From Macrostomum lignano (Eukaryota): a stretch of 64,000 nt of DNA. Each line of letters starts with the position of its first letter. The first letter of the stretch is position 1. The stretch is taken from the NCBI GenBank assembly GCA_002269645.1, contig NIVC01001330.1:124001-188000 (forward strand). The letters run 5' to 3'. Positions 36,600 through 56,888 of the stretch are shown piece after piece. A program made the translations under genes and the position numbers. The notes beneath the pieces were generated by a model, which searched no databases, was not told the origin of the DNA, and worked only from the letters and a program-made list of their open reading frames with translations.

Positions 36600-37614
36600 T
36601 CGTGAAGTAGTTTTTTGTCCGAACCTTTTTGACTAAAATATTTATTCAAAACACTCTCAGAGTTTCACATTCCAGACGCCAGCGATTGGAGCTGCTCCAG
36701 TTTTGCACAGCTCAAATCTAATTAAAATGTAAAGTGTGCTGGGTGGAAATGTTTATTCCGATAATAAATCTGCTGTACTTTTTAATTTTCACTACATAAG
36801 AAATAAATATCTATTCTGAATGAAATCCTACGATGCCCACGCAGAGTTAACTTCTAGTGACTATTTTATTACTTTTGTGAAAGGGAGCGCCAACAGTGAC
36901 TCATTTGCCTAGTGAAAACTAAAAATCTGCATAAGTAGTAGGAAAGTGGTACCCTCCACCGCCATCGCACGGGATTGGCCGGGGCACCCGGCCAATGAGG
37001 GGAGAGGGCGCCCCGAAGACGCCCCCCCGACACCAAACCCACCCCGACCCCCAAACCCACCCCGACCCCAAACCGGGCCCCCTCCTGTCCTGCACCCCGT
37101 GCATCCCATACCAAGGCCCCCTCCTGTCCTGCACCCCATGCATCCCATACCAAGGCCCCCTCCTATCCTACGCCTTGCCCCATCCCATGTAGCAAGGTCC
37201 TTCTATCCTGTACCCTAACCAAAACCAATTCCCCCCTCCTAATTCCTAAACCCAAGTCTTATTACCTGTCTCACTTACCGCCTTTAAAGCTAGCCGAGGC
37301 AAAACCCTCATTCCATGCTTTTGGTTGTACTCTATCTTGCTGTGGCGGGTACAGCGTGAGGTCGTTAGACCTAGAACGCTACTTCTTGGCGGCCAGAGGG
37401 CCGCAAGAAGGTCCCGCCACCTCCTGTTACGTAAATGGCTGAGTGGTCCCCGGAAGGGCTCCTGATTTGCCGAAAGTTCCTGCGAAAGGGCTGCTGTGTG
37501 GGGTTGGATTCGGGGTTCGGATTGGTTATTGCTATGGAGCGGGAGCTGGTCTTACTTATTAACTCCCGTCGTATATAATCTCGCGCACAACCGGAAGGAA
37601 AGCTCACAGTTTTT
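36600..37614 (+). repeat. Left TIR of element 1 (1015 bp; two 39-bp units)
   Basis: Reverse complement of 47646-49291; about 3 differences noticed over the outer ~430 bp. Confidence 0.95.
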
Positions 37615-37618
37615 CAGT
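37572..37618 (+). promoter_or_regulatory. TATA/Inr core promoter in the left TIR upstream of polB
   Basis: TATATAA at 37572-37578, CCGGAAG, and CAGTT/TCAGT ~30-40 nt downstream; polB ATG at 37666. Confidence 0.6.
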
Positions 37619-37665
37619 CCTAGAGTTTTTTAAAGAGTTAAAATTTTGCGTTCTAAATTTTAAAC

Positions 37666-40600
37666 ATGACATTTTGCGAATACTGTAGTCAGACAGTGGC
37701 CGGTGACATATTAGCTCACTACTCAGTGTGCCCAATTATTCCAACTTTATTTTCTGATGAACCGTGTCAATTCCAATTAATTAAAGAAGCATTTTTCGGC
37801 CAGACGCGACTCTATCGGCGGATCGTTGCCGGCCATCCCATCGACGCCCTGGAGTCATCCATTGCTTCAGGCACAGAACTCCTGGCAGATCTGCGTTCGA
37901 AACCAGGCTTTGCCATCAAGGTCCAAATCCGACTCGGCGTGTCTATGCAGCGTTGGGCTGGTGGCAGCTTTGTGGCGCAGAGCACAGCCTGGTTCGCCAG
38001 TCCTTTCAGATGAGGAAGAAGATTTCTTTGTTCGGGAAATCCCATTTATTTTGGAACGACTGAGCAAATACCTTCGCAATGGCAGTTGGTGGACAATTGA
38101 CTCCGTAGATCTTTCCATTGTAAGATATCAGTTGCCTCATGGCTCAGGTATAAGTTCCAACCCATTTGAACTTCCACCAAAGCTAAAGGCTAAAAGGGCA
38201 GTCATCAATGCCTACTCCAATGGGAACGACTGTCTGAAATATGCCGTTCTGTCTGCATTGCACGCTGACCGTGTTAGCAGTGAGAAGCCTTTGCGACGCT
38301 CCACTTTCCGTGAGTGGGAAGACGAACTTTGTTGGGAAAATGTACCTTTCCCTGCCAACGTGAATGACCTAGGCCGAGTGGAGAAGAACAATCCAGGATT
38401 GGCCATCTCGGCCTTCAAATGGACTAACGGCCATGCCCAGAGCTTGCGCCCAGCCCCAGCAGATCTCATTCAGGAATGGCGACCTCACCGATTGATCCTG
38501 CTTCTATTGGTTACCACTGATGCCGGCAACCATTGGTGTGCTATTGCTAACCTAGATCGTCTAATGAACAGTCATGACGCGCATAGATATCGTTGGTGCG
38601 ATCGCTGTCTAGGCAAGTTCCGGACGGTTGAGTCTCTATCCGTTCATAGACGGCGGTGCATTGGCCGTAAGGATAGCATGGAGGAGGTGATGCCAAAGGA
38701 TAAAACACTACGATTCAAGGCATGGCACAAAACACTCTCCCCACCTCATGTCATCTATGCAGATTTTGAAGCAATGATGTCCCCCATAGACGATGAGCTA
38801 GATGGCTGTGCTACCTTTAAGACTGCACACCACCTTCCAGCCGCTGCCGGATTCCTTATTGTCCAAAGAAGTGACGTAGCTGGGCCTCCACTCTCCGAAC
38901 GTCCTATGCAGCTGTTTTCAAAGTCGGATGAGTGCATGATGCACTTCCTACAGGCACTGGAGGCTGTCGCCATTGCAGCATACAAGTGGAATGCGCGACA
39001 TAGTCACTGCCCTGCCATTCGCTCTGTCCAGGAGGAAGAGCAGTTCCAGACTGCCACTCATTGCTGCTTGTGCGAGAAAGTTCTTGATGACGATCGCCAC
39101 TTTCATCATGATCATCTCAATGGCAAGTTTTTGGGTGCTGCATGCCCGTCGTGTAATGAGTCAGCTGTTCTCAAGCGCGACTTCCTTCCAATCTTTTTTC
39201 ACAATTTCCGAGGTTATGATTCACACTTGCTGTGCAGCACGGTGATCGGTCGTATGAAACATTGGGAACTAAGTGTCATTGCACAAACAAAGGAGCGTTA
39301 CATGACTCTAGAGGCCCATATACCTATTGAGTCGGTCTATGACTCATCTAAAGATCGCTTGGTGCCAAAATTCATGCGTCTGCGTTTTCTCGACTCTTTC
39401 CAATTCATGGCGTCGAGTCTTGCTCAATTAGTGCGCAATCTAACCCCGGTAGACTGTCACTACACGTTGGAGATGCAGCAGCGATATCCACTCGCCTCCA
39501 CCGAAGTCCTACTGCGAAAGGGGGTGTTCCCCTATTCCTATGCAACTAGTGATTCGAATTTAGATGACCAACAGCTCCCATCCCAAGAAGCTTTTGCTAA
39601 CGACTTGAACAATGAGCCTTGCAATGATCAGGACTATGCAACTGCCCAGCGTGCCTGGAGAGAGTTTGGATGTAAGACACTGCGCGACTACATGCTTGCA
39701 TACCTTGAAATGGACATTCGTCAGCTCGCCGATGTGTTCGAGGCGTTTCGTCGAATGAGCCTCACTTCGGATGGGCTAGACCCAGTGCATTTTGTAACGA
39801 CGCCGGGAATGTCTTTCGAAGCAGCGCTTAAGTACTGTAAATTGGAGCTTGAATTGCTGCAATGTCCAGAGTTGTACAGCTTATTTGAAGAGGGTACTCG
39901 TGGTGGTATGATATTTGTCAACACACACAGAGCCAAAGCCAACCATCCCGGACTCGGTGAACTGTATGATTCACATCAACCTCAAAGCTATCTTATCCCC
40001 ATCGACGCCAACAACCTCTACGGACACGCATTGTCCACCAAACTGCCATGGTGTGGGTTCCAGGTACTTGACACTGTACCACCAATCAATGAGGTTGAGA
40101 GATGGATCAGGGATGAGTTTGACCCAGAGGGCGATGTTGGATACTTGCTTAAGGTTGATCTCCATTACCCTCCAGAGTTGCACGACAAGACATCAGACTT
40201 TCCCCTTGCTCCGGAGAAGGCGCAGCCTCAATGGGAATGGATGCCGCCGCATCAGCAGCAGCTCTGGGAACTACTTTCTAGTCGGAGGCTCGCTTGTGGA
40301 GGATATAATTCTGGAGGCGACAAGTTGATGTTGACATGCTTTGATAAAACCAGCTATGTTGTACACGCCAGAATCCTACAGTTTTATCTCCGTCTAGGTC
40401 TTAGGCTGCGTACGGTCTACTGCTTAGTTCGCTTTCAGCAATCAGCAGTACTCGAGCCTTACATTCGGCGTAATAGTGAGCGGCGTGCACAAGCCAAAAG
40501 TGAGTTTGAAAAGGATTATAATAAGCTGCTGAACAACTCTCTGTTTGGGAAGACCATGGAGAATGTGCGCAAACGCTTTGACTACCGCCTGGTCAACTCA

Positions 40601-41032
40601 GCAGAGAAGTTGGAGAAGCTCGCAGCTAAACCTAACTTTGAAGATCAAGAGATATTTAATGAGAATCTTGTTCTCGTCCACATGCGCAAGACAACAGTCG
40701 AGCTCAACAAACCGGTGTACATCGGACAGTGTGTCCTTGATAACAGCAAACTCATTATGTACAGCTTGTGGTATGATAAGCTGCTTCCTCTGGTCAATCA
40801 GTTACCATGTGCGAGCCTCAATCTGCTCGGCGGTGACACTGACTCTTTCTTCCTCCACTTAAAGAATGCTGATGGCGAGCGATGGTTTCTGCCTAAACTG
40901 TGCGAAATGGAGCTGCTGGACACCTTTAATTATCCTAAGGACCACTGCTTGTATACTTGCGAACGCAAAGCAAGGTTGCCCGAGGAGAAGAGTTGGAAGG
41001 CAAGTTTTACGAGCCGGAAATGCAGCAAGTGA
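37666..41032 (+). pseudogene. polB: Protein-primed DNA polymerase B (element 1), frameshift at ~38000, C-terminus deleted after ~40978
   Basis: YADFEA, HHDHLNGKFLGAAC..CN, FHNFRGYD, FLDS, DANNLYG, KLLNNSLFGK and GDTDS; the expected G.(F/M)KDE and downstream motifs are missing. Confidence 0.95.
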
Positions 41033-41172
41033 CTGGAAACAAGAAGCTGTGGATCATCGACAAGGTTCTCAACATTAAGAAGCTGAAGAGTGGAAAGATT
41101 CGGTATTTGGTTCAGTGGCGCGATTCAGAAAAACCCAGTTGGATTGACGAAAAAGACTTAAGAAAAATATGA
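40981..41172 (+). pseudogene. C-terminal remnant (chromodomain) of the Polinton integrase
   Basis: GEELEGKFYEPEMQQV followed by IIDKVL...RYLVQW...SWI, the typical tail of Polinton integrases; the DDE core is absent. Confidence 0.85.
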
Positions 41173-41950
41173 AAAGGCAAAGATTTCAGGTAATGTCCGG
41201 CCCCGATGATGACCCGGCCAACTTTACTTCTGAGCTGCTGCATCCTGTGCTGCTGGATTCTGCTTTGGATTATGAGTTGGCTCTGCTTGGAATCAGTTTT
41301 ATCAACTGCATCTACACCATCTCTCATCCATTGTCGCTATATTATCAGCTTGAGGGTTCAATGCAATGTGCTGAAATTCCAGCTGGGCGCTACAATGACT
41401 TGAATGAGCTGATTGAAGCAGTAAATACCCTACTGATTGTAAAAGATTTTGATGAGTCTGGAATTGGCGAAACACCTATAAATGTGCATCTAATTAAATC
41501 TACCCTTGATTCAGTTAGCCATCATGTATACTATCAAATGGCTGGGATCTGTGGGAGATTTATCTTTCCAGAAAACAGCCAGCTGGGGAAAATCTTTGGT
41601 GCTGCGCAGACAACCTATAGCGAGCAGGCAAGATGCTTTGAACGACCTGGCATGAACCCGGCCTGGAATACGGATTTGCTGCTTGTTGAGTGCGATCAGA
41701 TTAGCCCGCGCTGTATTGGAAACTGTTTACTCCAGCACTGCAGACTTTGAATATTGGTGGTCTTTTGCAGGGTCACCGGTCGGAATTCATCTATAAGAAT
41801 AAGCTGTTCTTCCCAATAGCAGCAAACCACCGCTTAACACACATGCAAATACGGCTACGACCGATCAACTGCATCGAATCTATCCGATTACTCTTCGGAC
41901 CCACAGTCTTGACTTTTGAGCTGCGTGAGTCATGGACATTCGACAAGTGA
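41169..41950 (+). pseudogene. Minor capsid protein (penton, single jelly roll), one -1 frameshift at ~41727
   Basis: ANFTSEL..V.L....YELAL, GRYNDL, LLVECDQI...IG, F.PI..N.L..MQIRL...GPTVLTFELR. Confidence 0.8.
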
Positions 41951-42120
41951 CCGAGTTTTATCGAGGCAGTTGCTTCAAACTTCCTCATGGGCACGGATAT
42001 CCCACATTGCTGCTATCTCAACTGCCCCCTGAGACTCATGAAAATGCAGTTCTCCTTTCCCGCATACCAACTCCATCGCAGAAAAAACATAAGAAAACGC
42101 CAAAAATCAAACCAAAGTAG
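41932..42120 (+). CDS. Small basic core-protein-like ORF (possibly degenerate)
   Basis: FYRGS...HGHG motif and Lys-rich tail between penton and major capsid, as in many Polintons. Confidence 0.45.
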   Translation: MDIRQVTEFYRGSCFKLPHGHGYPTLLLSQLPPETHENAVLLSRIPTPSQKKHKKTPKIKPK

Positions 42121-42194
42121 AGCAAGCCAGTGCCCACAAAAAAGCGCAAGATATCATACAAAACAGTCAACCGAGTGCTCGATTCATTCTCATA

Positions 42195-43448
42195 ATGTAT
42201 CGGACAAATCCACGGCTCAACCTGTTTGAGCCAAAGACGCATGAAATCGGAGTGGATAGGTCTCACTTCATGGACTTTCATCCCATAGGCAGTCTCACGA
42301 CTCCTGATGCACCGATTGAATTCGACTGCCACGCCTCCTCTGAGGACTACACCGATCTGCACGCCACAGTGCTGCAAGTCACTTGTCGGATAACTCGTGT
42401 GATAAACAATGCAGAGCTGACTAATGAAGATGATGCCCATGTCGGACTATCGAATCTCCCGCTTGCCAGCCTGTTTCGTGATGTGACTGTAAAACTCAAC
42501 CAGCGGGTTGTGAGTGGTGGGGACCAGCTCTACCCATATCGAGCAATGCTTCAAGTGCTGACCAGCAGCAATGCCAACCAGCTTCAAGAACTGGCGGCCG
42601 CAGGTTATTATCCAGACACCGCTGGAGAGAGTGACACCATTGGGGAGCAAAATCATGGATTCACAAATCGTGCGAGATTGCATGAGGCTTCTGCTGTTGT
42701 GCAATATGCCGGCCCGTTGTTTTCAGACATTTTCTCAATCCGGCAGTATCTGCTAAACCAAATCAGCCTGCAGGTCAAATTGACCCGGCATTGCAGCGCT
42801 TTTTCATTGATGGTACCCAATAATGGTGTTCAATACCGTGTTGAAGTCGACAATGCTGTTCTGCTTTTGAGGCGTCTCCGAGTAAACCCAACAGTAGCTC
42901 TCGCACATAAACAGGGGCTCTCACAACGTAATACTCTCTACCACTGATAGAAGAGAGCTTCAGACATTCACATTTTCTGTTGGGACAAGAAACAAGAGTC
43001 TCGATTCAATCACGCATTTGTGCTCCTTGGAATGGTCAGCCAGACAGCTTTCAATGGATCTCTGCACCACAACCCGTTTTGGTTCCAAGCATTTGGATTG
43101 AATAGTTTAAGCCTGTTTGTCAATGGAGAGCCAATTACTGGGCAGCCCATAGAACCACAGCAGCAGCACTCATCCGAATTTTTGCAGTTTGCCCGCAGTC
43201 TCGGTGGAAACTATTGCATGAGCTTTGATGAATATCGAGATAGTGCCTATCTGCTTGCGTTTGACCTTAGTCCAAGTGGCGATGAAGTAGGCAGCTGGTT
43301 TGGTCATAGGCAGGGTCAACTACGACTGGATATTCGCTTTTCCAACGCTCTCGCACAGCCAGTCACACTCATCTGCTTGTGCGTGTATGACTCATGCATG
43401 GAAATCACTAAAGAGAGGGATGTGCTGCTGGATTATCGCAGAGCATGA
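42195..43448 (+). pseudogene. Major capsid protein (double jelly roll), disrupted at ~42945-43020
   Basis: RLNLFEP, PIEF, DYTDL, SLFRDV.VKLN, YPYRA, GYYPD, GPLFSDIF, AFNG....NPF.FQ.F, AFDLSP, G.LRLDIRF. Confidence 0.9.
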
Positions 43449-43918
43449 ATTCCGAAGAGTTGGAAACGTTCATTTCTCGCTGCCCCACACCTGTGCGGGA
43501 TGCCTATTGCGGAATTTTTACAGTTGGAACAGTGACACCATTTTTCGATTCAACCTGCCGACCCTGCTGCTTCATTTTATATGAGCCATGAAATGATGAG
43601 TGCGGTCACTGGATTGCTGGAGTAGTAACCAGTAAAGTGCATTGTGAAATTTTCAACTCTTTGGGAGGCTTGAGTAAAAATATGAAGAGCTGGTTAAAGA
43701 AAACTAAACCGACGCGGATGGTGCTACAATGAAATTCGGTCCCTGTTCAGCCCAGTTCGTCAACTCTATGCGGCTGGTATTGCATTTTTTACTTGATCCA
43801 TCGACTGCATAAGAGAATGTCGTATAATGCCTTGTTCATCAAGGTTTTGCACCCGGCAGCTGTGGCTCAAAACGATGCAATCATACCCAGACTCAAAAAT
43901 CAGTTGCAAGGTGTTTGA
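43445..43918 (+). pseudogene. Adenain-like cysteine protease with two in-frame TGA stops
   Basis: Translated by hand: GHWIA...EIFNSLG...VQPSSSTLCGWYCIFYL; its ATG overlaps the capsid stop (ATGA). Confidence 0.88.
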
Positions 43919-44534
43919 TTCCAGACTGCGGATGGGCGGCTGCATGATGGTTTCGGGCCCTTCTCGAGCGGGAAAATCAACAATCTGTTTGCGGATGCTG
44001 TCCCAACGACTGCTTCTGTTCGACCAACCTCCCAAGCGGATGATTTGGTATCACGGATGCCCGCAGCCGGAACTCCACGCGACTCTGCAGCGGCTAGGAG
44101 TGCAACTATGTGAAGGATTATCGAATTTGGATTTGCAGCCCCATGACCTGATTGTGATTGACGATTTACTGGATGAAGCAGCTGCAAGTCGAGAGCTACG
44201 ACATCTGTTCACCCGTAAGGCCCACCACAAGCCCTGCTTTGTCATTCTCATCACGCAAAATCTATTTTTCAAAGGCAGAGAGTGGCGCACAATTAGCATA
44301 AATTGCACCTACATTGTGTTGTTCAACAACCCGAGAGACACCTCTGCGGTCCAAGCTTTAAGTCAGCAATGCTTTCCCAAACGGCGCACTCTGCTAGTAG
44401 AACTGATGGATCGATTGGTGCGAGATGGAGATCAGCGCTATCTGCTGCTTGATTTTCACCCCGCTTCACCCCATGAACTGCGCCTGAGAGCCAATTTTCT
44501 CCCCGATGAGGCCCCGCAGCGAGTTTATCTATAA
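43900..44534 (+). CDS. FtsK/A32-like DNA packaging ATPase
   Basis: Walker A GPSRAGKS, Walker B IVIDD, FTRKAHH, ILITQN, YIVLFNNPRD, YLLLDF; exact start uncertain. Confidence 0.93.
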
Positions 44535-44564
44535 GAATGGCTCAGTCTCTGCACTGAGTTAAAC

Positions 44565-44897
44565 ATGAATAAACACATTGCACTAATAACTGTCTTTTGT
44601 GAGGGCACGATATCCTTGCGTCGCTGCATACTTACCTATACAAATAAAAGCACCATTTGCTTTTTGGTCGAGTGTATTATCAACTTACTAGCAGGAAAAG
44701 TTGGCTGTGAAGATAGCTTGAAGCGGAGACTCAGGCGATATCGAAATACTCTCCGGCTTGTTGCACAAAGCAAAAGTGTGAAAGAGGCTCGGCGCAATCT
44801 CTCACACCCGCATATCCTTCGTTGTCTTCCTCTGATTCTCACCTGTATAAAAAGACATGTACAAGGAAATGATACTGGTACCCCGGTTGCAGTATGA
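44565..44897 (+). CDS. Small basic conserved Polinton protein following the ATPase
   Basis: LRRCIL...TICFLVECIINLLAGKV...LKRRL pattern recalled from Polinton ORFs. Confidence 0.6.
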   Translation: MNKHIALITVFCEGTISLRRCILTYTNKSTICFLVECIINLLAGKVGCEDSLKRRLRRYRNTLRLVAQSKSVKEARRNLSHPHILRCLPLILTCIKRHVQGNDTGTPVAV

Positions 44898-45450
44898 GGC
44901 ACTTGTGAATCAGAGGGGCATGGAGACAGTCTGTGAACCCGAGCTAGAGGCGGAAAAACAGTTGCGCAAGATTACGGACGAGCGTTGCGTGCAGCAGCTG
45001 CAGGCAAGTGCGACCCAAGAACAGTCTCCAATTCACAAAGAACCGCAGTGGAAGGAGGTGTTATATCTGACGGTGAATCAGAAATGGCATCATCGTCTGC
45101 AGGCATTGATTAGCTTCATAACCGTAAAGTGCAAGTCGATTAGCATAGATGATACGTATGAAGTTTCTGTCAATGGTAAACCGTTGTACAACTCAAATAT
45201 CGTGGACCTGCTGCATTTCATAGTTAAAGATACGTACTCTAAGTACCTTCAGCCACCGAATGGGATTAATGAGTTTGTTACGTGTCTTCAAGAAAACCAC
45301 GTGCCTCTGTCTGCAGTTGGTCTGAACACTACAAAATTGCTGGAAAAGCCTCGGGAAGAAAAGTCCAGTCCTAAAAAACCTCGACTGCAAGGCTATAAGA
45401 AGACTCAGTCTCAGAAAGGATACGGCAAGTGGATCAAGTGGCCAAGATGA
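44857..45450 (+). CDS. Conserved Polinton protein (PZ-like)
   Basis: EMILVP start; EVSVNGKPLYNSNIVDLL and PNGINEFV..L.EN.VP motifs. Confidence 0.65.
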   Translation: MYKEMILVPRLQYEALVNQRGMETVCEPELEAEKQLRKITDERCVQQLQASATQEQSPIHKEPQWKEVLYLTVNQKWHHRLQALISFITVKCKSISIDDTYEVSVNGKPLYNSNIVDLLHFIVKDTYSKYLQPPNGINEFVTCLQENHVPLSAVGLNTTKLLEKPREEKSSPKKPRLQGYKKTQSQKGYGKWIKWPR

Positions 45451-45910
45451 TTTTCATTGATTTTGAAGGATTTCCGCACCTCTACAAAACAGAGGACTTT
45501 GTGATTAAGGAAATTGCATGGGTTGAGTTTGCATGCGGTCAAACGACGGCTCATTACTATTGCTTTGATCGAGGACAGCGACGAACCTGCTACTGGCTCA
45601 CCAATAAGCGGCACGGTCTAGACTGGGACAGGAGTGGGTTCCGACCCTACTCTTGTCTCTGGAGCGATATCTCTCACTTGCAAGGCCCGATATTTAGCAA
45701 GGGGGATGTCAAGTGCCAGTTCCTGTCGCGTCTGCTGCTGCAGCCTGTCTACGACCTCGCACACCTGGCCTTTCCGAGTGCCTCAAAGTACGTGCTGCCC
45801 TGCGCCCTGGCCAAAGTGGCGCTGTACGCTGATTGGCTGCGGCCTCGCGGCTACGGGTCTATAAAAGTAGCGATCTGCAGCAGGCACTGGCGTTTCTCTC
45901 GATTGTCTAA
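45447..45910 (+). CDS. DEDD-like exonuclease-fold accessory protein; reads through into the TBP-like frame in this sequence
   Basis: FIDFEGF...FVIKEIA, HGLDW..G, IFSKG..K, C.L pattern; the natural stop probably lies at 45864 or 45910 in another frame. Confidence 0.6.
45860..45867 (+). promoter_or_regulatory. TATA box upstream of the TBP-like ATG
   Basis: TATAAAAG starting 53 nt before ATG 45913. Confidence 0.5.
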
Positions 45911-45912
45911 AG

Positions 45913-46511
45913 ATGGTCGCAACAATTCGCGTGACAAACATCGTGACAGGAGCCGACCTGGCGACCCGGTGGGTCTGCCACAACTAGCGAATTTCCTGAC
46001 TCTTCATCTGCCTCAGTATCACACAATCCGCCATCGCCTGGTTCATCCTCGAACACTGGCAGTGGTTATGAAGAGCGAGCAGCATCGAGTAACCGCGCTG
46101 GTGTATCCGACCGGACAGGTGTCTGTCTGTGGAGCCAAAAGCATGGAGGAAGCTCTCGCAGAGACGGAGAAGATTGTGAGGCTGTGTGCGGACTTCTTGC
46201 GATTGACCAGTCTGCCCCAGATTCGCATCAAGACTATTACCTCTGTGACGGCCTTTCCCGCGGGTCCGCATCCACTCCGGTTGGGGGAAGTCAAGTCTAA
46301 ATGGCCGCATCGGGCCACCTACGAGCCGGAAATGTTTAACGGACTTGTGCTCAAGTTTAATGCCTCTGTAAAGTTGATTTTGTTTCATTCGTATCGTTGT
46401 ATAATAGCAGGTGCTCGCAGCGTGGTTGAGGCTCAGACTGCAGCTGATGCCCTCTCCCGCATTTTGCTACCAGATCAAGCATCCGAACCTACTTTGCTGG
46501 ACTCTGACTGA
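45913..46511 (+). CDS. TATA-binding protein (TBP)-like protein, ~199 aa, one -1 frameshift at 45960
   Basis: Two TBP half-repeats: IRVTNIVTGADL(G)DPVGLPQLA...VTALVYPTGQVSVCGAKSMEEA and IRIKTITS...PLRL...YEPEMFNGLVLK...LILFHSYRCIIAGARS. Confidence 0.85.
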
Positions 46512-46937
46512 GCTCCTCTACGGCATAACAGTAGTAGTGAGATCTGCCTATGCACTGAGTAATAATAATAATAATAATAATATTTTCCTATAACTTTACT
46601 TCTGTATTTTTTGTGTACAAAAGATAAGAAAAAATAAACGCGAATGCGACTATAGTGTTTGTACAACAATGCTTACGAAAATGAAATGTTTTTTAGTTTA
46701 TTTTATTGGCAGGTCCATGGATTGCAAAGCATAAAATTTCATGTTAAAAGCTCGTATTAGCACAAAAAAGTTTACGAAGAATGGAAGGGCAGTATTAAGG
46801 CCCGTCGCGTGTATTTACAAAACAGTATTATCGCCAGGAATCAAAGCATGATGGGGCAATATTATGGCCAGTATTGACAAAGCAATATATACAACAGTGC
46901 ATGATCAGTACTATGGTTCAAAACTATTAAAAAAAAG

Positions 46938-47633
46938 TTAATTGACGAAATGACCTGTTGTCGCTTCATGCATTGCGCGTCGCTTCATTGGTAGCTGGTG
47001 GAATGAAGGCTGTTGGTTTTTCTCAGCTGTTGGTGGCTCTTCCAGAGTTTCGGATGTAAATCTCTTTCTAAATTCAGCCTGAACTGCCTGGAAGGCCTCC
47101 CAGTGGTCGTCCCACTCTGCCGGCTGCCTGTCAGGTACTTGCATCAGTTGGTCGAGTGAAAGCCTTGCTGCCCATGCTGCACCCTCTTCAGGCTCCGTAG
47201 GGTGATATCCCATCCACCTTGGATCGCCGATCGGTGGCTCGACCGGAGGCTCTCGCTTGTCAATTTTGTCTAGGACCCATTGCTTTTGAGCCCAGACTTC
47301 GCGCCAAAGTGTTGTAGGAAGCGGTAAGGCGTGCCTTAGGTGCACCGGCGGTCCGAGTACAGTTGGAAGGCGCCAGAGTGTAATTACGCCATTTTGCACA
47401 ACCACTTGCCTGTTGCCACCCAGAAGGCATCGCGCATCGATGCACTTTCTTGCAAACTCTTCCAGTCGTTACTTCAGGCTGCCCAAGTGGCAAAACTGGT
47501 GGACGGTGAGCTCCATGCCAGGCAGACCTGGTCGATACTCTTCATCAAATTTGTACCACTTTCTGATGCTGATGCACTTCGAGTGCGACCTGACGCCGAT
47601 TCAAAATCTGTTCGATAATGTATTGAAGTTCAT
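46938..47633 (-). pseudogene. Tandem PC4/Sub1-like ssDNA-binding protein, 231 codons with two in-frame stops
   Basis: Hand translation from ATG 47633: LSNRF*IGV..KCISIRKWYKFDEEYRPGLPGMELTVHQF..L, then LGGNRQVVV..GVITLWR...ALPL..TLW; stops at 47603-47601 and 47471-47469. Confidence 0.65.
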
Positions 47634-47645
47634 TTGTTCACTGTC

Positions 47646-49291
47646 AAAAACTGTGCGCTTTCCTTCCGGCTGTGCGCGAGATTATATACGACGGGAGTTG
47701 ATAAGTAACACCAGCTCCCGCTCCATAGCAATAACCAATCCGAACCCCGAATCCAACCCCACACAACAACCCTCTGGCAAGAACTCTCGGCAAATCAGGA
47801 GACCTTCCGGGGAACCACTCAGCCATTTAGAAATCAGCTCCCGTTACATAGCAATAACCAATCCGAACCCCGAATCCAACCCCACACAGCAGCCCTTTCG
47901 CAGGAACTTTCGGCAAATCAGGAGCCCTTCCGGGGACCACTCAGCCATTTACGTAACAGGAGGTGGCGGGACCTTCTTGCGGCCCTCTGGCCGCCAAGAA
48001 GTAGCGTTCTAGGTCTAACGACCTCACGCTGTACCCGCCACAGCAAGATAGAGTACAACCAAAAGCATGGAATGAGGGTTTTGCCTCGGCTAGCTTTAAA
48101 GGCGGTAAGTGAGACAGGTAATAAGACTTGGGTTTAGGAATTAGGAGGGGGGAATTGGTTTTGGTTAGGGTACAGGATAGAAGGACCTTGCTACATGGGA
48201 TGGGGCAAGGCGTAGGATAGGAGGGGGCCTTGGTATGGGATGCATGGGGTGCAGGACAGGAGGGGGCCTTGGTATGGGATGCACGGGGTGCAGGACAGGA
48301 GGGGGCCTTGGTATGGGATGCACGGGGTGCAGGACAGGAGGGGGTCTTGGTATGGGATGCACGGGGTGCAGGACAGGAGGGGGCCTTGGTATGGGATGCA
48401 CGGGGTGCAGGACAGGAGGGGGCCTTGGTATGGGATGCACGGGGTGCAGGACAGGAGGGGGTCTTGGTATGGGATGCACGGGGTGCAGGACAGGAGGGGG
48501 TCTTGGTATGGGATGCATGGGGTGCAGGACAGGAGGGGGTCTTGGTATGGGATGCACGGGGTGCAGGACAGGAGGGGGTCTTGGTATGGGATGCACGGGG
48601 TGCAGGACAGGAGGGGGTCTTGGTATGGGATGCACGGGGTGCAGGACAGGAGGGGGTCTTGGTATGGGATGCACGGGGTGCAGGACAGGAGGGGGTCTTG
48701 GTATGGGATGCACGGGGTGCAGGACAGGAGGGGGTCTTGGTATGGGATGCATGGGGTGCAGGACAGGAGGGGGTCTTGGTATGGGATGCACGGGGTGCAG
48801 GACAGGAGGGGGCCCGGTTTGGGGTCGGGGTGGGTTTGGGGGTCGGGGTGGGTTTGGTGTCGGGGGGGCGTCTTCGGGGGCGCCCTCTCCCCTCATTGGC
48901 CGGGTGCCCCGGCCAATCCCGTGCGATGGCGGTGGAGGGTACCACTTTCCTACTACTTATGCAGATTTTTAGTTTTCACTAGGCAAATGAGTCACTGTTG
49001 GCGCTCCCTTTCACAAAAGTAATAAAATAGTCACTAGAAGTTAACTCTGCGTGGGCATCGTAGGATTTCATTCAGAATAGATATTTATTTCTTATGTAGT
49101 GAAAATTAAAAAATACAGCAGATTTATTATCGGAATAAACATTTTCACCCAGCACACTTTACATTTTAATTAGATTTGAGCTGTGCAAAACTGGAGCAGC
49201 TCCAATCGCTGGCGTCTGGAATGTGAAACTCTGAGAGTGTTTTGAATAAATATTTTAGTCAAAAAGGTTCGGACAAAAAACTACTTCACGA
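47646..49291 (-). repeat. Right TIR of element 1 (1646 bp; fifteen 39-bp units and a ~123-bp duplication)
   Basis: Inverted copy of the left TIR; TATATAA at 47688-47682 points at the PC4-like ATG. Confidence 0.95.
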
Positions 49292-50089
49292 ATCTGTTAG
49301 CCAACCAGACAACTGAAGTAGACGGACGCTGCGCTCGATTTTCTCAGCACGGATGTCCGCCTCGCACATTCGTCCGCATGTACGCAAGGCTCTGCAGAGT
49401 CCCGTTTGCTGCAAAAGACTGGCTTCGTAACTCTTGGATGAGCCGACGAAAATTTACAACAGAGATCGGTCAGCTCGGCTGAGCCGGAAGAAGAGCGTGC
49501 GGCGCCGTCTGCAAGAAGACAGAAAGCGGCGAGTTTGGTGGCGATCTGTTGCTCCGAGAGCTGCACGACGTGCCCAAATTACAGGCTGAGCTGACTTTAT
49601 TAATGTGCCTCTGCTTGACTGCACGTTGCGCAATCAAATTAGAGCATCATAGACGCATTTTACTTTGATTGACTGCCGGCGATTTTTTCAACGGCAGACA
49701 GGCAGTTCGAGTCTTCAGTAAAGCAAAGAATTTATCTGAATTAAAATCAAGTCAATTATTTACCTGACATTCATTACTATCTCACCGGTAGATTCGATGT
49801 TTTACTAAAGTACTTTAATATTTTTACATTTAGAGCTTTTTATATCGAATTTAAAGGCTGTAAACATTATAACGGTTGTGAATTGTTGGAAGATGTCACG
49901 TTTTTGAGCGCTTTTAGCCTCAGTATAGTATGTGTAAATAATCTGTAAATAAACTAATAGGATTGCTGCAGAACTGCTTAGGGATAAGTGGCCATTTGCT
50001 CAAGGATTGTGTAAAACTGCTGAAAGACCAGTGTGCTTCACTGAATCGGTGCTCATTTTCTAAATGTTTCACTCTCCCACTGGGTCATA

Positions 50090-51642
50090 TTTTGTGATTG
50101 TCTTGCTTTCTCACTCATGTTTTGTGATTCTCTCACTTTCTCACTCATATTTTGTGATTGTCTCACTTTCTCGCTCATGTTTTGTGATTGTATAGCTTGC
50201 TCACTCATGTTTTGTGATTGTCTCACTTTCTCGCTCATGTTTTGTGATTGTATAGCTTGCTCACTCATGTTTTGTGATTGTCTCACTTTCTCGCTCATGT
50301 TTTGTGATTGTATAGCTTGCTCACTCATGTTTTGTGATTGTCTCACTTTCTCGCTCATGTTTTGTGATTGTATAGCTTGCTCACTCATGTTTTGTGATTG
50401 TCTCACTTTCTCGCTCATGTTTTGTGATTGTGTCACTTTCTCACTCATATTATGTGATTGTCTCACTTTCTCACTCACATTTTGTTATTGTCTCACTTTC
50501 TCACTCATATTCCGTGACTGTCTCACTTTCTCACTCATATTATGTGATTGTCTCACTTTCTCACTCACATTTTGTTATTGTCTCACTTTCTCACTCATAT
50601 TCCGTGACTGTCTCACTTTCTCACTCATATCATGTGATTGTCTCACTTTCTCGCTCATGTTTTGTGATTGTATCACTTTCTCACTCATGTTTTGTGATTG
50701 TCTCACTTTCTCGCTCATGTTTTGTGATTGTATCACTTTCTCACTCATGTTTTGTGATTGTCTCACTTTCTCGCTCATGTTTTGTGATTGTATCACTTTC
50801 TCACTCATGTTTTGTGATTGTCTCACTTTCTCGCTCATGTTTTGTGATTGTCTCACTTTCTCACTCATGTTTTGTGATTGCCTCACTTTCTCGCTCATGT
50901 TTTGTGATTGCCTCACTTTCTCGCTCATGTTTTGTGATTGCCTCACTTTCTCACTCATATTCCGTGACTGTCTCACTTTCTCACTCATATCATGTGATTG
51001 TCTCACTTTCTCGCTCATGTTTTGTGATTGTATCACTTTCTCACTCATGTTTTGTGATTGCCTCACTTTCTCACTCATGTTTTGTGATTGTCTCACTTTC
51101 TCGCTCATGTTTTGTGATTGTATCACTTTCTCACTCATGTTTTGTGATTGCCTCACTTTCTCACTCATATTTTGTGATTGTCTCACTTTCTCGCTCATGT
51201 TTTGTGATTGTATCACTTTCTCACTCATGTTTTGTGATTGTCTCACTTTCTCGCTCATGTTTTGTGATTGTATCACTTTCTCACTCATGTTTTGTGATTG
51301 TCTCACTTTCTCGCTCATGTTTTGTGATTGTCTCACTTTCTCACTCATGTTTTGTGATTGCCTCACTTTCTCGCTCATGTTTTGTGATTGCCTCACTTTC
51401 TCGCTCATGTTTTGTGATTGCCTCACTTTCTCACTCATATTCCGTGACTGTCTCACTTTCTCACTCATATCATGTGATTGTCTCACTTTCTCGCTCATGT
51501 TTTGTGATTGTATCACTTTCTCACTCATGTTTTGTGATTGCCTCACTTTCTCACTCATGTTTTGTGATTGTCTCACTTTCTCGCTCATGTTTTGTGATTG
51601 CCTCACTTTCTCGCTCATGTTTTGTGATTGTCTAGCTTGCTC
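50090..51642. repeat. 30-bp satellite (TTTTGTGATTGTCTCACTTTCTCGCTCATG), ~52 copies
   Basis: Read directly; the 10-aa periodic ORFs are artefacts. Confidence 0.96.
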
Positions 51643-52028
51643 AAAAATTTTAATTCGTTTTCGCTTCATTCTTGCAGCATTTCTAGGGTTCCTAAGCTTT
51701 ACGTGATAAGCAGTCGACTTCGGTATTTCGTGCTGATAAAAACTATTCTAGGGTAACAATTTTTAGTGTATCATATTTAATGACATATTTGAATATCTAC
51801 TCATCAACATTGAAAAGTTAATTGCCACTCTATGCGCCAGCAAGCAGTTTTTACTGGACTATTCTGAAATAAAAGATGCAAGAAAACTGATCTGGGTAGC
51901 TTTAATCCGTCCAACACTCGCACACCGCTCCCCACACTTCATTCCTCAACTCAAGTCTGCCGCGGTGTAGCTGAGTTGCATCACTCCCAAGTAGAAGGCA
52001 TGAGGGGGCTTCTGGGACAAAATTTTTC

Positions 52029-52330: not shown

Positions 52331-52780
52331 ATCCCTGACAGAATCAGAGCATAACAGTAGGACACCTGTTATGCTCACTGACACCGACATCCACCCATAG
52401 CATGTTCGAAACAATCAGAAAATAATCTGCATTCTTCTCCCCACATTCAATTTGCAAAGCGAAACCACATCCCTAAGACTTTAAATCATCAGCGCAGGGT
52501 CCTCACCCTTTGAAAAAATATAAATTCTCAATAAAAATGTTTCCAGTTGTCTCTCCAGGTTCTTATTACAAAACGCACGAGCCTAATTACAAATCCAAGT
52601 ACCGATGCAAACTTGAATGCAGCGAGTACATGAGAAAATATTGGCCCGGCATGGATATCAATGTCCCTAATATTAATCAAGCTCTCCAAAGACACTGGTT
52701 TGAAAAACATGGAGTAACCTATGTAAAAGATTACGATAGCTATTATAACTTTGCAGAAATCATTAAGCAATTGTGATTTC

Positions 52781-53330
52781 TCACATTCTCTCAATGATCA
52801 ACGTCAATACAAACTCTTCACCGTTGAAATCAACACCCACCCCATCTTCAGTCTCAAACTGTAGCACAATCTCGTGAATCTCCTTATTACTCAATACAAC
52901 TCTTTTCACTGGATTTGGTTTCTCTACCACCATCTGTCCTCCAGCTACAGACTTGGAGATGTTGTACAAAATATTAGTTCGCTTTCCCTTAAATACCCAA
53001 TCAAGACTGAGATTAGTTCTGATTAGAATATTCAAACCCTTTACAATGTCTGCTATATTGGGTGCTAAGAACAAACCGCGTACACTTTCCCGGGCCATGA
53101 TAACGGCCCCCGTCGCTTGAGTGGCGGTCCGCGCCGCGGATTCTGCCTTATAAACTTTCTTCTCGAATCCTAATTCCCTATACCAAGTGTCATCTTTAAA
53201 CTCAACCTCCGCATTTTTGTGAACTTGCATGACCACTCTCATTACAGTGAGATCATAGGATAGTTTGACAGGGAACAGTTTTTTATCTGGCTTACTCGCA
53301 TCAGGTGTCTCGAAATATAAGCCGAAACAT
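52781..53330 (-). pseudogene. Minor capsid (penton) C-terminal part; 5' part degenerate or interrupted
   Basis: ELGF, NIADIVKGLNILIRTNL, ILYNI...GGQMVVEKPNP, EIVLQFETEDGVGVDFNGEEFVLTLII. Confidence 0.75.
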
Positions 53331-53460
53331 TAAATTCTGCATTATCTAATAATAAATCAGCACATGGACAAACTCATCTAAATTAAATATCAGCAAAGCT
53401 GGTTTGAAGATTGTGTCTGTCACTTTTTATTTAGAAGAATGAGTAAATAGCATATCATAA

Positions 53461-53781
53461 TTAATAAATTGATAATTGATTACCAATGGGCAGATGTGCA
53501 ACCGACAGCTCAGCCGCAGCTATTGCGCAGCTCATCTGAAGGCTGCTACGGCTGTTCAGTCCAAGGACTGGGGGGTCGCCATACACACACCCTCAATTAC
53601 TCCAGCTAATGCTGGCACCCATTTTACAGCTGGGTGAACTGAAGCAATGCGGAGTAAAGTTCCTTGCTCAAGGACACAAATTGTTGCAGTGGGATCGGGA
53701 ATCGAACCCCCCGACCTTCAAGTCGTGAGTCCGACGCCCTAACCACTAGGCTACAACCCCTACAGCAGGTGGGGTTGTAGT
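53461..53781 (-). mobile_element. tRNA-derived CORE-type SINE (321 bp)
   Basis: A-box TAGCCTAGTGG, B-box GGTTCGATTC, CORE-like TGTCCTTGAGCAAG...CAGCTGTAAAATGGG; 9-bp TSD ATATCATAA (53452-53460 / 53782-53790). Confidence 0.88.
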
Positions 53782-53994
53782 ATATCATAAATAACATGTC
53801 ACACACAGCTGGTACCAGAATAGGAAAAATTTCAACGCGTTAGCCTTTTCTGGCCAATCGAACGCAAGCTAGAGCGTGCGTAAAATACAAAAATATTTAT
53901 ATACAAAATATACAAAATATACAAAGTATACAAAAATATACAAAAATATACAAAATATACAGAATATACAAAAATATTTAACAAAAAAAATAAT

Positions 53995-54240
53995 TGCTCT
54001 TGCAATAGGAAAAAATGCCAACGCGTTGGCTTTTTCTGACCAATCCGAAGCAGGCTAGCGCTTTTTATAAAAAATTCTTTCTTTTGCTCTTGCAATAGGA
54101 AAAAATGCCAACGCGTTGGCTTTTTCTGACCAATCCGAAGCAGGCTAGCGCTTTCTATAAAAAATTCTTTCTTTTGCTCTTGCAATAGGAAAAAATGCCA
54201 ACGCGTTGGTTTTTTCTGACCAATCCGAAGCAGGCTAGAG
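53995..54240. repeat. 90-bp direct repeat, ~2.7 copies plus a partial copy at ~53820
   Basis: TGCAATAGGA at 54001, 54091 and 54181; contains CCAAT. Confidence 0.9.
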
Positions 54241-54248
54241 TGTCTTTT

Positions 54249-54932
54249 TCAAACAAGTTGCTTCCATGACTGATCATCCTCAAGGATTTCAACTAATATT
54301 GACATATTAGCATTCAGATCACGAAGCGGCAGGAAGACTTGCTTAAGACCAGGGTATTCACTTTCCAGCTTGAATAACTTCATATAAAGATTGGCCGACG
54401 AAACCTTGAGGTTTACTTTATCGAGAAGATAGTCAAAATTCTGTTTTCGGGCCTTTCTATCGTAGTTTTTGTTACCGTTTTTAAATGTCAACAAAATTTT
54501 TCCACATTGGATCGCATGAAGCAGACCACTCTTCTGCGACCTTTTCAGACGAAGCAGAGCGCACTGCAGACGCTTTACCACATCACCGCCTTCATCATCG
54601 GAAGGTATCCCAACATCCGCTTGGGGAATTCGTGAGGCGGTGAGCTTCTGTTTGAAGTCTTCTTTGCGCTTAGCTCGCCGCTCTGCATTAAGCGCCGCCA
54701 TGCGATCACTCGCCTCCTTCTTCTGCTGCCGCGTTAGAGTTAGGACTTCCATTTGCAGCGAATCTTCCTTGAGCCCGAAAAATCTGGCGATCTTTTGTCT
54801 TTTCTCCGCAGCTCTAACTGGATCCTTGATTTCTGCTAAAGTCTCAGATAAGACCTCGCATAGTCTCCGTTTCGCTGTTTCGCCAGACAGGTTTAAACAC
54901 CAATCAACATCCATAGATGAACTAGAAGCCAT
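54249..54932 (-). CDS. Accessory protein, 227 aa, with a putative C-terminal helix-turn-helix (DUF3102-like pattern)
   Basis: Intact ORF; AIQCGKILL..K...F..LL..V....S.ANLYMKL pattern. The family call is tentative. Confidence 0.55.
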   Translation of the reverse strand: MASSSSMDVDWCLNLSGETAKRRLCEVLSETLAEIKDPVRAAEKRQKIARFFGLKEDSLQMEVLTLTRQQKKEASDRMAALNAERRAKRKEDFKQKLTASRIPQADVGIPSDDEGGDVVKRLQCALLRLKRSQKSGLLHAIQCGKILLTFKNGNKNYDRKARKQNFDYLLDKVNLKVSSANLYMKLFKLESEYPGLKQVFLPLRDLNANMSILVEILEDDQSWKQLV

Positions 54933-55320
54933 TACGGTTTCGGTCGAGCAGCAGAAGCGTAAAGTAGTTGCACATAAAAAACTATAATCTGTCGCTTCTG
55001 TTTCTCAGTGCACAATGCGTGTGAAGATATAGAGAGCTAAAAATCGTTTTCAAATGTACATGCGCTTGTATCTACGCGAAATTTCTGTTACTAGCTGTTG
55101 CGTTCGATCGATTAAGCCACCCACCCGCTGCTCTACTCAAGCACCTAACACCAGCAAAGCGAGCTAAGACTCCCAAGCTCACTCTTTCCTTTCCTAAGAT
55201 TGTATGGACAAAATTCCTAGCAATACATTCGCAAAAATCGATTTCCCAATTTTTAAAAATGCAGCTGCTGCGTTTGGCCAGGGCTGAGAATAATACGCTC
55301 GTAGTTAAACCCTTCCCGAC

Positions 55321-55821
55321 TCAAACGTCTCTCTCTACCCCCAGCTCTTTCAGCAGTCTTCCTAGTACCTTGTGAGGTGCGCACAAAATAAACCCGGCTC
55401 CCGTGCGTTCGCCCTCTCTCCCCGTGCACTCGCCCTCTCTCCCCAAACACCCGCCCTCGGCGTACACCCCCAACCCCAGTTTTGTCTTACTAAAAATAAC
55501 AGCTTTAACTAGCTTCCGAGCGATCGACTCCTTCCACCCGCTTGAAGCCCCTATATTGTCTAGTCTCTTAAGCATTTCTTTGTCCCAGCGATTCTTCTCC
55601 TCAGGAAAATCTCTATACTTAACGTCGTGCCACATGCAGACAGAGTCTAGCTCGTTCACAGGCTCATGCCCAGGATGTGGATTATTGTTTTTATCTAGCT
55701 GTATTTCAAGTGGATTCAAAGGCCCGCAATATTTATAGCCGGGAAGTGTCCAGCCTTTGTTCGGATGAGGAAGCTTTTCTATCAGTCCATGTGAATCTAA
55801 CTTACCACCAGAGCGCTGCAT
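55321..55821 (-). CDS. Parvovirus-type phospholipase A2 domain protein, 166 aa
   Basis: TLPGYKYCGPLN (Ca-loop-like), PVNELDSVCMWHDVKY (catalytic HD), RWDKEM. Confidence 0.88.
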   Translation of the reverse strand: MQRSGGKLDSHGLIEKLPHPNKGWTLPGYKYCGPLNPLEIQLDKNNNPHPGHEPVNELDSVCMWHDVKYRDFPEEKNRWDKEMLKRLDNIGASSGWKESIARKLVKAVIFSKTKLGLGVYAEGGCLGREGECTGREGERTGAGFILCAPHKVLGRLLKELGVERDV

Positions 55822-55851
55822 TATTTTATTTAAAATTTTCTTTTTAAATAA

Positions 55852-56888
55852 ATGACAGATCAGAAACTTAAAAAACTCTACTACAGCGACAAAGGTTTCT
55901 TTGTAGGCAAAAATGCCGTTAGTAAACTCATGGAGCTGAGTAAGGAACCAAAAGCTACAGTAGAAAAATGGCTCTCTAAGCAGGCTGTCTTTCAAGTCTA
56001 TTTCCCACCAGTAAAATTTGAAAGGCCCCATTTCAGTATTTATAAACCTAATGAAGCGCACCAAGCAGATCTTTTGTTTCTCCCCAATGACTCAGGCTAC
56101 AAGTATGCTCTCACAGTAATAGACATTGCTTCCAGATATAAGGAAGCTCGCCCACTCAAGACGAAGAAGTCAGAGGTTGTTGCCAGCGCACTGCAAGATA
56201 TTTATAAAAACTCTCCGCTCACATACCCCAAATCTTTATGACCGACCCGGGTAAGGAATTCATGGGTGTAGTGAAATCCCTTATGGAAAAGAAAAACACA
56301 GAGATTCGCTATGGCAGAACAAACTTGCACAGAGACCAGGCTTTTGTGGAAAGATTCAATCTAACTCTAGCCAAGAGACTATTCACTAAGCAGACAGCGC
56401 AAGAACTCAAACTGAGTGCGGGGCAATACTATACCAAGTGGACAGAAAGACTCCCCATTGTTATAGAGCAACTGAACAATGAAGTCACACGTATGACTGG
56501 ATTGAAACCGTCCCATGCAATTAAACAAGACACTGTCAAACTTAAGGCAACTCAAAGAACAGACAACAACACTACAACCCCACACAACACACACAACACA
56601 AAACACACCTCGAACTACCCTCAGCTTCCAGGAGTTGAATCACCATACATACTGACAAACTCTGAGTTTCTACGCTTTTTATATCTACCTGGAGAGCTAG
56701 AGAAAGACACCAAAAGAAGAGCTACAGATCCATACTTCAGCCTTGATGTACATAAAATAGACAGACATTTTACATCCGACTCTGGAGAGTATTACTTTTT
56801 ATCTCAAGCCTTTAACCCTAAATCCCCCACGCGGTCATTCACTAGAGCTGAACTCCTAGTGATACCAGCTGACACAGAAATTAATTAA
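55852..56888 (+). CDS. Retroviral-like DDE integrase (345 aa if the one -1 frameshift at ~56238 is corrected)
   Basis: HQADL, LTVID..SRY, (L)MTDPGKEF, VERFNLTL; the junction TTATG is TTA-ATG minus one A. Confidence 0.92.

Follow-up and report, generated by a model that had tools for sequence, protein, structure and literature searches.

The window, by which we mean the whole 64,000-nucleotide stretch of Macrostomum lignano DNA analysed here, holds a Polinton copy of about 12.0 kb from end to end (36934-48957, forward strand), which we assign to a group called G1 and both of whose ends begin AGTAGTAGG. The terminal inverted repeats of these Polintons begin AGTAGTAG and have AGT-type ends. The left repeat (37614 is its last position, from 36934, forward strand) carries a TATATAA box at 37572-37578, before the PolB gene; the right repeat (47646-48957, reverse strand) has an expanded internal tandem repeat and a TATATAA box that points into the convergent gene. 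The genes that follow lie on the forward strand unless stated otherwise. A broken gene for a protein-primed PolB with an endonuclease-VII-like insert occupies 37666-40977 (PF03175, E 3.1e-11; PF02945, E 0.011). At 40977, a deletion of about 2.2 kb has removed the C-terminus of PolB; in a sibling copy (L047) the corresponding segment contains the end of PolB and an rve integrase (PF00665, E 3.2e-13). What is left of the integrase is its C-terminal chromodomain end (40978-41172), 98% identical to residues 277-340 of the sibling integrase, and the chromodomain is seen in siblings. The original prediction, made from the letters of the window, had overlooked that most of the integrase is missing; its identification of the element as a Polinton is confirmed by the protein-primed PolB, the rve integrase and chromodomain of siblings, the terminal inverted repeats and the 6-bp target duplications of siblings.

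The virion block begins with a putative minor capsid gene (41169-41953, broken), recognised by position and size, and a putative major capsid gene (42195-43448, broken), whose homologues in two other groups, G2 and G3, are 36-41% and 27-38% identical, respectively; both are devoid of Pfam matches. A putative maturation cysteine protease follows (43445-43918, broken), with His and Cys motifs in the sibling frame. These three names are ones we presume from position, motifs and the gene sets of Polintons, without a profile match. The packaging ATPase (43797-44534) has AAA-type Pfam matches below the cut-off and homologues in all three Polinton groups. Two small conserved Polinton genes of 110 and 198 codons (44565-45450) are present in elements devoid of a TBP-like gene too. 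The next gene, which we call oDE (45447-46300), offers a DEDDh/Maelstrom-like lead only: it belongs to no Pfam family, and its G2 homologue has a weak Maelstrom lead in the atlas (0.88). It accompanies the TBP-like gene in G1 and G2 and was not found in G3. Both the window gene and a G2 homologue (L057:3148-3996) resemble unnamed arthropod clusters (0.96). The TBP-like gene itself lies at 45913-46511, followed by a putative AATAAA poly(A)-like signal (46633-46638); another putative poly(A)-like signal near 46700, on the reverse strand, would serve the convergent gene (46938-47560, reverse strand), a homologue of a PC4-domain protein of a G2 copy (L080; BLASTP E 2e-7, Pfam PC4 E 2.4e-9 for the latter).

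Both ends were visible in 7 of the 10 G1 copies fetched, of which six have an exact 6-bp target duplication and one matches at five of six positions; such duplications were also seen in three G2 elements. The window copy has no target site duplication at the element ends. In its place, the same 335 bp of flank borders the element on both sides, in opposite orientations (36600-36933 and 48958-49291), the result of a rearrangement or an assembly artefact. This flank was rejected as part of the element because siblings end at 48957. The left flank also joins another copy, on contig C414, which is 99.9% alike outward and is broken off just before the TBP-like gene. Elsewhere in the window, a second decayed Polinton of another type extends from about 52700 to 64000, with integrase pieces, a broken PolB, an ATPase at the window end and a PLA2-like gene (55321-56091, Pfam E 9.7e-14); the part within the window has no TBP-like match. 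A weak tyrosine-recombinase match (29642-30754, reverse strand, Pfam E 0.0011) perhaps marks a DIRS- or Crypton-type element, and the kinesin, ankyrin and kinase exons near it are host genes. Interstitial telomere-type (TAACCC)n repeats occur in both orientations at 9044-9114, 16107-16141 and 19721-19750, and tandem arrays with 15-, 23- and 30-bp units at 297-1900, 7700-13400 and 49950-51750.

The reading frame of the TBP-like gene starts with an ATG at 45913 and its stop ends at 46511, both of which we confirmed. The open piece at 45969-46508 matches the Pfam TBP family in two stretches (PF00352, E 1.6e-18; 66.7 bits for a cut-off of 22.9), as well as 35 distinct TBP sequences of solved structures at E<=0.001 (best 7.5e-11), and we found the motifs NIV, TALVY..GQV.V.GAKS, YEPEMF and GARS in the protein. 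The original prediction had recognised both halves of the TBP saddle and proposed the PF00352 search that we ran; profile, structure-database matches and sibling fold bear it out. It had also supposed that adding one base would restore a protein of about 199 residues. The window copy indeed has a one-base frameshift at about codon 19, and among the 19 siblings fetched (the 20 best loci minus the window's own), 13 are naturally open from the same ATG, over 199 or 201 codons, and the remaining six are broken at nearby or other sites. The window frame was left unrepaired, since these siblings already provide natural open frames. With 13 open siblings, and with G2 copies lying beside Polinton genes, the intact copies in Polinton context that it had called for do exist, and the fold model it had suggested was made on an unbroken sibling instead of a repaired frame. 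This AlphaFold2 model, built from an alignment of 15 element-type sequences with cellular TBPs excluded, has a pLDDT of 86.7. Foldseek searches of the PDB with it returned TBPs at all listed ranks down to 44 (best E 2.5e-12, TM about 0.69, with partners including 1mp9 and 1ytb), and the BFVD search matched giant-virus TBPs (best E 3.1e-12, from Heterosigma akashiwo virus), to which sequence identity is 7-18%. Taken together, sequence matches and fold model place it beyond doubt that 45913-46511 is the gene of a two-lobed protein of predicted TBP fold, and the window copy is a decayed insertion.

Two fusion forms were considered and rejected. The 370-codon open frame at 45399-46511 is an artefact of the frameshift, which runs the overlapping frames of oDE and the TBP-like gene together; six longer TBP-containing proteins are all chimeric-looking Macrostomum gene models. 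Close database relatives of the protein are likewise Macrostomum lignano entries (93% identity over 121 residues). Putative RNA contigs from four runs, whose RNA status is a guess, cover coding and non-coding parts of the locus alike and present a single joint, without splice ends.

The TBP-like gene has 42 matches in its own genome, of which 30 cover at least 85% of the gene. A TBP family search of the genome gave 330 candidates, of which 150 were scored; host TBP and a TLF-like gene, each found on three contigs, score highest. Fetching 20 further PF00352 places revealed 18 beside another Polinton gene and two with no other match, and 16 of the 20 share one gene order, integrase-capsid-protease-ATPase-small genes-oDE-TBP-like, with PolB convergent. 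This is a second and much larger Polinton group, G2, in which the TBP-like gene is likewise a core gene, a point the original prediction had overlooked. Between G2 and G1, identity is 34-38% for the TBP-like protein, 36-41% for the capsid and about 45% for PolB and ATPase, so that the TBP-like gene has come down together with the virion block ever since the two groups parted. The dN/dS ratios of the two lobes are 0.20 and 0.22 in G2 (13 copies) and 0.44 and 0.41 in G1 (13 young copies). On these comparisons, one Polinton lineage has long kept the TBP-like gene as part of its core set, under purifying selection.

How does this family relate to the TBPs of its host? Identity is 25-28% to host TBP and 23-28% to host TLF, and quick trees of 78 and 30 rows group the Polinton proteins in a single clade with long branches (SH-aLRT 98). 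As a remote sister, neither host TBP (p 0.109) nor host TLF (p 0.161) is rejected by AU tests. Relatives in other public data sets, 60-62% identical to G1 and 66-72% to G2, have open frames and fall in the same clade. Our scans of viral contigs found nothing of the family, and the metagenome scan gave six loci, none of this family but giant-virus-like and archaeal-looking TBPs at 21-35% identity. A divergent 180-residue TBP on a 26-kb contig (P0007) is placed beside the Polinton clade by both trees, which may reflect long-branch attraction. As for the host genes, the TBP core and the TLF-like gene (L021-L032) are intron-free where read, and their equal scores on three contigs each suggest a partly polyploid or haplotype-split assembly. 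A G1 subfamily with 87-88% DNA identity (L093, L095, L096) has a TBP-like frame of 189 open codons without the first strand and the Glu-Pro-Glu motif; one copy of it that was read further (L094) has no capsid genes, so that this subfamily is probably non-autonomous.

The protein is a saddle of 187-201 residues without extra domains, with a net charge of +6 to +21. We describe its surface in the residue numbering of yeast TBP (69, 71, 99, 116, 127, 159, 190, 191, 207). Asn69, Val71, Phe190, Phe207 and a basic residue at 127 are kept. The position of Phe116 is Tyr throughout the family, that of Asn159 is Thr within an invariant R[IV]KT motif, leaving the base-reading Asn pair incomplete, and that of Pro191 is Ser, Asn or Thr. 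The loop of Phe99 reads [YH]R[PL][VTA][WH]PR across the family; more likely, this first intercalating Phe is replaced by Trp or His followed by Pro, in a register that we infer from the alignment with one gap on each side. The set of four intercalating Phe is therefore incomplete: 190 and 207 are kept, 116 is Tyr, and 99 is Trp or His, or lost, depending on register. A yeast TBP mutant with Pro after the N-lobe aromatic reportedly uses variant TATA boxes, the register here being uncertain. The original prediction had seen an intact Phe pair in repeat 2, which is correct, and an altered repeat 1, which holds for the Tyr at position 116 but not for its 'RTL for RFA', probably read in the wrong register. 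It had overlooked that the DNA face of lobe 2 has changed too, with Asn159 turned to Thr and Pro191 lost. The available text of PMC12529657 describes Pro191 as favouring a T in first place of the TATA box; a box beginning with C is in keeping with the loss of this residue.

All 15 of the element-type proteins aligned share an unchanged Glu-Pro-Glu stirrup (C.L3.2, C.L3.4); one decayed subfamily has lost it. A complex prediction with exon 2 of host TFIIB gave no usable answer (score 0.01) and is given no weight here. The basic patch on N-lobe helix 2 is kept in G2, with 5-6 Lys or Arg and 0-2 acidic residues, and is acidic instead in G1. As far as the available part of PMC7221094 goes, the stirrup Glu residues touch TFIIB, these positions have diverged in the TBPs of giant viruses, and the basic helix-2 patch is a regulator-binding surface; the part of PMC12529657 available describes KSHV ORF24 as devoid of the TFIIB-contact acidic residues.

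Upstream of the gene starts, we noticed a recurring TAAGAA, a motif thus chosen after the data had been viewed. The box before the integrase and virion genes is mostly CTTAAGAA, strand-specific and non-TATA. TAAGAA is the top hexamer in three backbones (27 seen, 5.6 expected) and occurs 44 times in sense and once in antisense in five virion modules, four of which are related G2 modules and hence not independent; the coding strand of four PolB stretches contains a single one. Of the 10 gene starts in each of three G2 backbones, 8 have a TAAGAA 15-160 nt upstream, which none of 20000 random placements reproduced; most boxes are 33-56 nt before the ATG. In the window, the widened pattern TAAGA[AG] precedes 5 of 8 gene starts (random placement: 33 of 20000). 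All on the forward strand, these are a TAAGAA at 41159-41164 (ACTTAAGAA) before the minor capsid gene, another at 42090-42095, 105 nt before the major capsid start, a TAAGAG variant at 43810-43815 before the ATPase, and two boxes of the form CTATAAGAA at 44532-44537 and 45396-45401, 33 nt before the 110-codon gene and 51 nt before oDE, respectively. The protease and the 198-codon gene have no TAAGAA box upstream. The TBP-like gene is preceded by a putative canonical TATA box, TATAAAAG, on the same strand (45860-45867, 53 nt before its start), which would fit early expression of the G1 gene by host TBP.

Canonical TATATAA or TATAAAA boxes were seen ahead of the PC4-like gene at all 4 left ends; the first PolB-side gene has one in 5 of 8 cases. 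In G1, they also occur in the terminal repeats and upstream of the TBP-like gene. The G2 TBP-like gene is itself preceded by a late-type box. G1 boxes are often still TATA-like, as in CTATAAGAA above, and only two G1 sites match [CT]TTAAGAA.

G3 served as a control. No TBP-like match was found in 2,346 frames from 15 G3 stretches, partly short of full copies (best E 0.14). In five G3 elements (46,000 nt, two near-duplicates being left out), TATAAGC occurs 27 times in sense and never in antisense at the corresponding genes, [CT]TTAAGAA twice in sense and once in antisense, and plain TAAGAA, somewhat enriched, 14 times in sense and 5 in antisense. The respective sense and antisense counts of [CT]TTAAGAA are 21 and 1 in G2 and 2 and 0 in G1, and TATAAGC is absent from both groups, with 0 occurrences in 28,779 nt of the TBP-bearing groups. 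In the ATPase tree, G1 plus G2 versus G3 amounts to a single phylogenetic contrast. The G3 elements (L097-L110), TBP-less, endowed with a dUTPase and with a strict TATAAGC before most genes, present a Polinton promoter motif of their own. For the original prediction's hint at a changed DNA specificity, the non-TATA box upstream of virion genes is indirect support.

In G2, the two lobes of the gene have been inherited apart. Across the virion block and the N-lobe, paired elements share 95-100% identity; from around nucleotide 310-350 of the TBP-like gene and on through PolB, they share about 55-70%. The N-lobe often has a dS of 0.02-0.15 in comparisons whose C-lobe dS is above 1; the C-lobe is 55-80% conserved between G2 variants, and the PolB proteins of such pairs are 51-61% identical. 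One pair is 96-98% alike again beyond PolB, so that here a cassette made of the C-lobe and PolB was exchanged. Near-identical virion modules with many PolB genes (51-73% identical), the cassette starting in the middle of the TBP-like gene, are seen in L054-L064, L071 and L072. Given the endonuclease-VII-like insert in PolB, homing-like spread is conceivable. Where it overlaps the N-lobe, the oDE frame remains open over 128 codons in G1 and 106-110 in G2, and its end lies just before the breakpoint. Such an overlap arose by chance in 47-128 of 5000 synonymous recodings per backbone (47 of 5000 for the 128-codon case), and the longest comparable open runs in five other genes are 58-96 codons. 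Nematode Polintons are known to undergo pPolB replacement, with polymerase genes bearing nuclease inserts exchanged by recombination (10.1101/2023.08.22.554363); in the part of that paper available, a break between TBP lobes is not mentioned.

What might such a protein do? We lean slightly towards a viral TBP that would read the TAAGAA late box and recruit host TFIIB and RNA polymerase II. Host TBP would start the early genes and, in G1, the TBP-like gene as well; the viral TBP would then bind the (C/T)TTAAGAA box in the minor groove, in the fashion of a TATA box, and present its conserved acidic stirrup to host TFIIB, whereby host RNA polymerase II would be brought to the integrase and virion genes. 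This would constitute an early/late switch without a viral polymerase or viral TFIIB. The TBP fold and the fixed syntenic position at the end of the virion block in both G1 and G2 point to it, as do the two box classes, TATA at PolB-side and PC4-like genes and TAAGAA at integrase and virion genes. Other observations sit less easily with it. Since the TBP-less G3 elements carry a strict TAAG-core box at the corresponding genes, the box is older than the TBP-like gene, and some other factor might recognise it in every group. With a late-type box before the G2 TBP-like gene, its first expression would need read-through or leaky use. The loss of Asn159 and of one intercalating Phe could weaken DNA binding, and a C-lobe that is freely swapped in G2 while the box stays unchanged would be odd if that lobe reads half of the box. 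A fuller version, for which we would give a little less than even chances, is that an animal Polinton lineage of 12-20 kb may have arrived, independently of herpesviruses and giant viruses, at a one-protein late switch, a rewired minimal TBP acting on CTTAAGAA with host TFIIB, whose N-lobe would be locked to the virion module by the overlapping gene and whose C-lobe would travel with swappable PolB cassettes, making up a natural library of chimeric TBPs.

Other explanations deserve consideration. The protein could be a decoy or antagonist, a TBP mimic that ties up host TFIIB/Brf or the negative regulators Mot1, NC2 and TAF1 and so tilts host transcription in favour of the virus, with some other factor, from the Polinton or the host, reading the TAAGAA box. 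Such a role would account for an invariant TFIIB-contact Glu pair next to drifted DNA-face residues, for a TAAG-core box that occurs without the TBP-like gene and for the basic helix-2 patch kept in G2, a regulator-binding surface according to the available text of PMC7221094. We nevertheless find it unlikely, since Phe190, Phe207, Asn69, an aromatic residue at 116 and the basic residue at 127 are all kept in a positively charged protein, G1 lacks the basic patch, and the box departs from TATA only in TBP-bearing elements. Somewhat less probable in our opinion, given the clean split within G2 between TATA on replication-side genes and CTTAAGAA on virion-side genes, is a general booster, binding TATA-like sites loosely at early and late promoters alike and escaping host eviction; the difference in motif between groups would then be lineage drift. 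This reading draws on the fact that we have a single phylogenetic contrast and that the G1 boxes are half canonical, and escape from Mot1 has been proposed for other viral TBPs (PMC7221094, in the part available).

We also considered an RNA-processing signal. Flatworms trans-splice, and AAGAAA is a weak poly(A) variant, so that TAAGAA could be a trans-splice acceptor or a poly(A) variant of a polycistronic block whose genes are tightly packed on one strand, and the TBP-fold protein could have a non-promoter function such as bending the genome for packaging or replication, consistent with the C-lobe travelling with PolB in G2. This seems improbable to us: the integrase, which opens the block and has no gene upstream of it on the same strand, also has the box; a pyrimidine tract plus YAG is absent; most boxes are placed as a -30 element would be; and there would be no need to conserve a TFIIB stirrup. 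Lastly, the family could descend from a recent retrocopy of host TBP or TLF carried as a neutral passenger, the case that the original prediction had named as fatal to it. The intron-free state of both host genes, in the stretches read, and the AU tests, which leave a remote host origin unrejected, could be invoked here. 'Recent' and 'neutral' are already refuted by the low identity to both host genes, the separate long-branched clade, a dN/dS of 0.2, the synteny fixed in two groups, the presence of the gene in other copies and the open relatives at 60-72% identity in other data sets, and we regard this origin as extremely improbable.

Viral TBPs as such are known. Beta- and gammaherpesviruses have TBP-fold mimics (KSHV ORF24, EBV BcRF1, HCMV UL87) that serve late genes with a TATT/TATTWAA box (PMC12529657, available text). 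The likeness to our proposal extends to a nuclear dsDNA virus without its own RNA polymerase, a TBP-fold protein and a non-canonical late box, of which the Polinton protein is the putative reader. However, ORF24 is, in that same text, a large multidomain protein that works as one of six members of a complex and is devoid of the acidic residues for TFIIB contact, whereas the Polinton protein has kept them and is a bare saddle, without the extra domains by which the herpesvirus proteins bind Pol II and DNA; it has no recognised partner complex, unlike ORF24, and its role is presumed. The TBPs of NCLDVs are likewise divergent, two-lobed and viral. In the available text of PMC7221094, most NCLDVs bring a TFIIB of their own, and the adapter positions of their TBPs have diverged, whereas the Polinton genome is only 12-20 kb and the element genes scanned present no Pfam match to a viral TFIIB or RNA polymerase. 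Nor did a genome-wide profile search reveal a multicopy TFIIB-like gene (15 PF00382 matches, versus 330 TBP candidates). A further comparison is TLF/TRF2, which combines a TBP fold with a changed DNA face and acts at non-TATA promoters. The N-lobe of TBPL1 carries a Trp (PMC7221094, available part), but the Polinton TBP is virus-borne and does not group with host TLF.

Starrett et al. (10.1101/697771; PMC8502044) use the label 'TBP' in the legends of figures on non-animal MELD viruses and related elements, a precedent that the original prediction had overlooked. In the parts of that work available, these are legend labels for non-animal data sets, with no analysis in the text, no promoter motif and no animal Polinton family, and our comparison is by label only; the supplement of PMC8502044 contains no TBP, TATA or Macrostomum, and PMC11161782 no occurrence of TBP, TATA or transcription. 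In their gene set, AGT termini and 6-bp target duplications, our elements are like Polintons/Mavericks (beta-type adintoviruses); unlike the Polintons described in the texts available to us, they have a TBP-like core gene and polymerase cassette swaps that cut between the TBP lobes. In the literature searched, with subscription journals and Repbase outside its scope, we found no report of a TBP for animal Polintons or of the TAAGAA box. Given herpesviruses, giant viruses and the MELD label, it is the animal Polinton family with a TBP and its box that appears to be new here.

The timing of Polinton gene expression is essentially undescribed in the literature we searched, and a concrete factor, a box and a factor-less control lineage make this question testable. 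If our reading is right, this would be the smallest viral TBP system known and, unlike other viral TBPs, one that uses host TFIIB; it would also supply a TBP whose specificity has been altered by nature, of use both for studying how TATA is read and as a component of orthogonal promoters. That these elements had a true virus-like cycle would gain further evidence from a late switch of their own.
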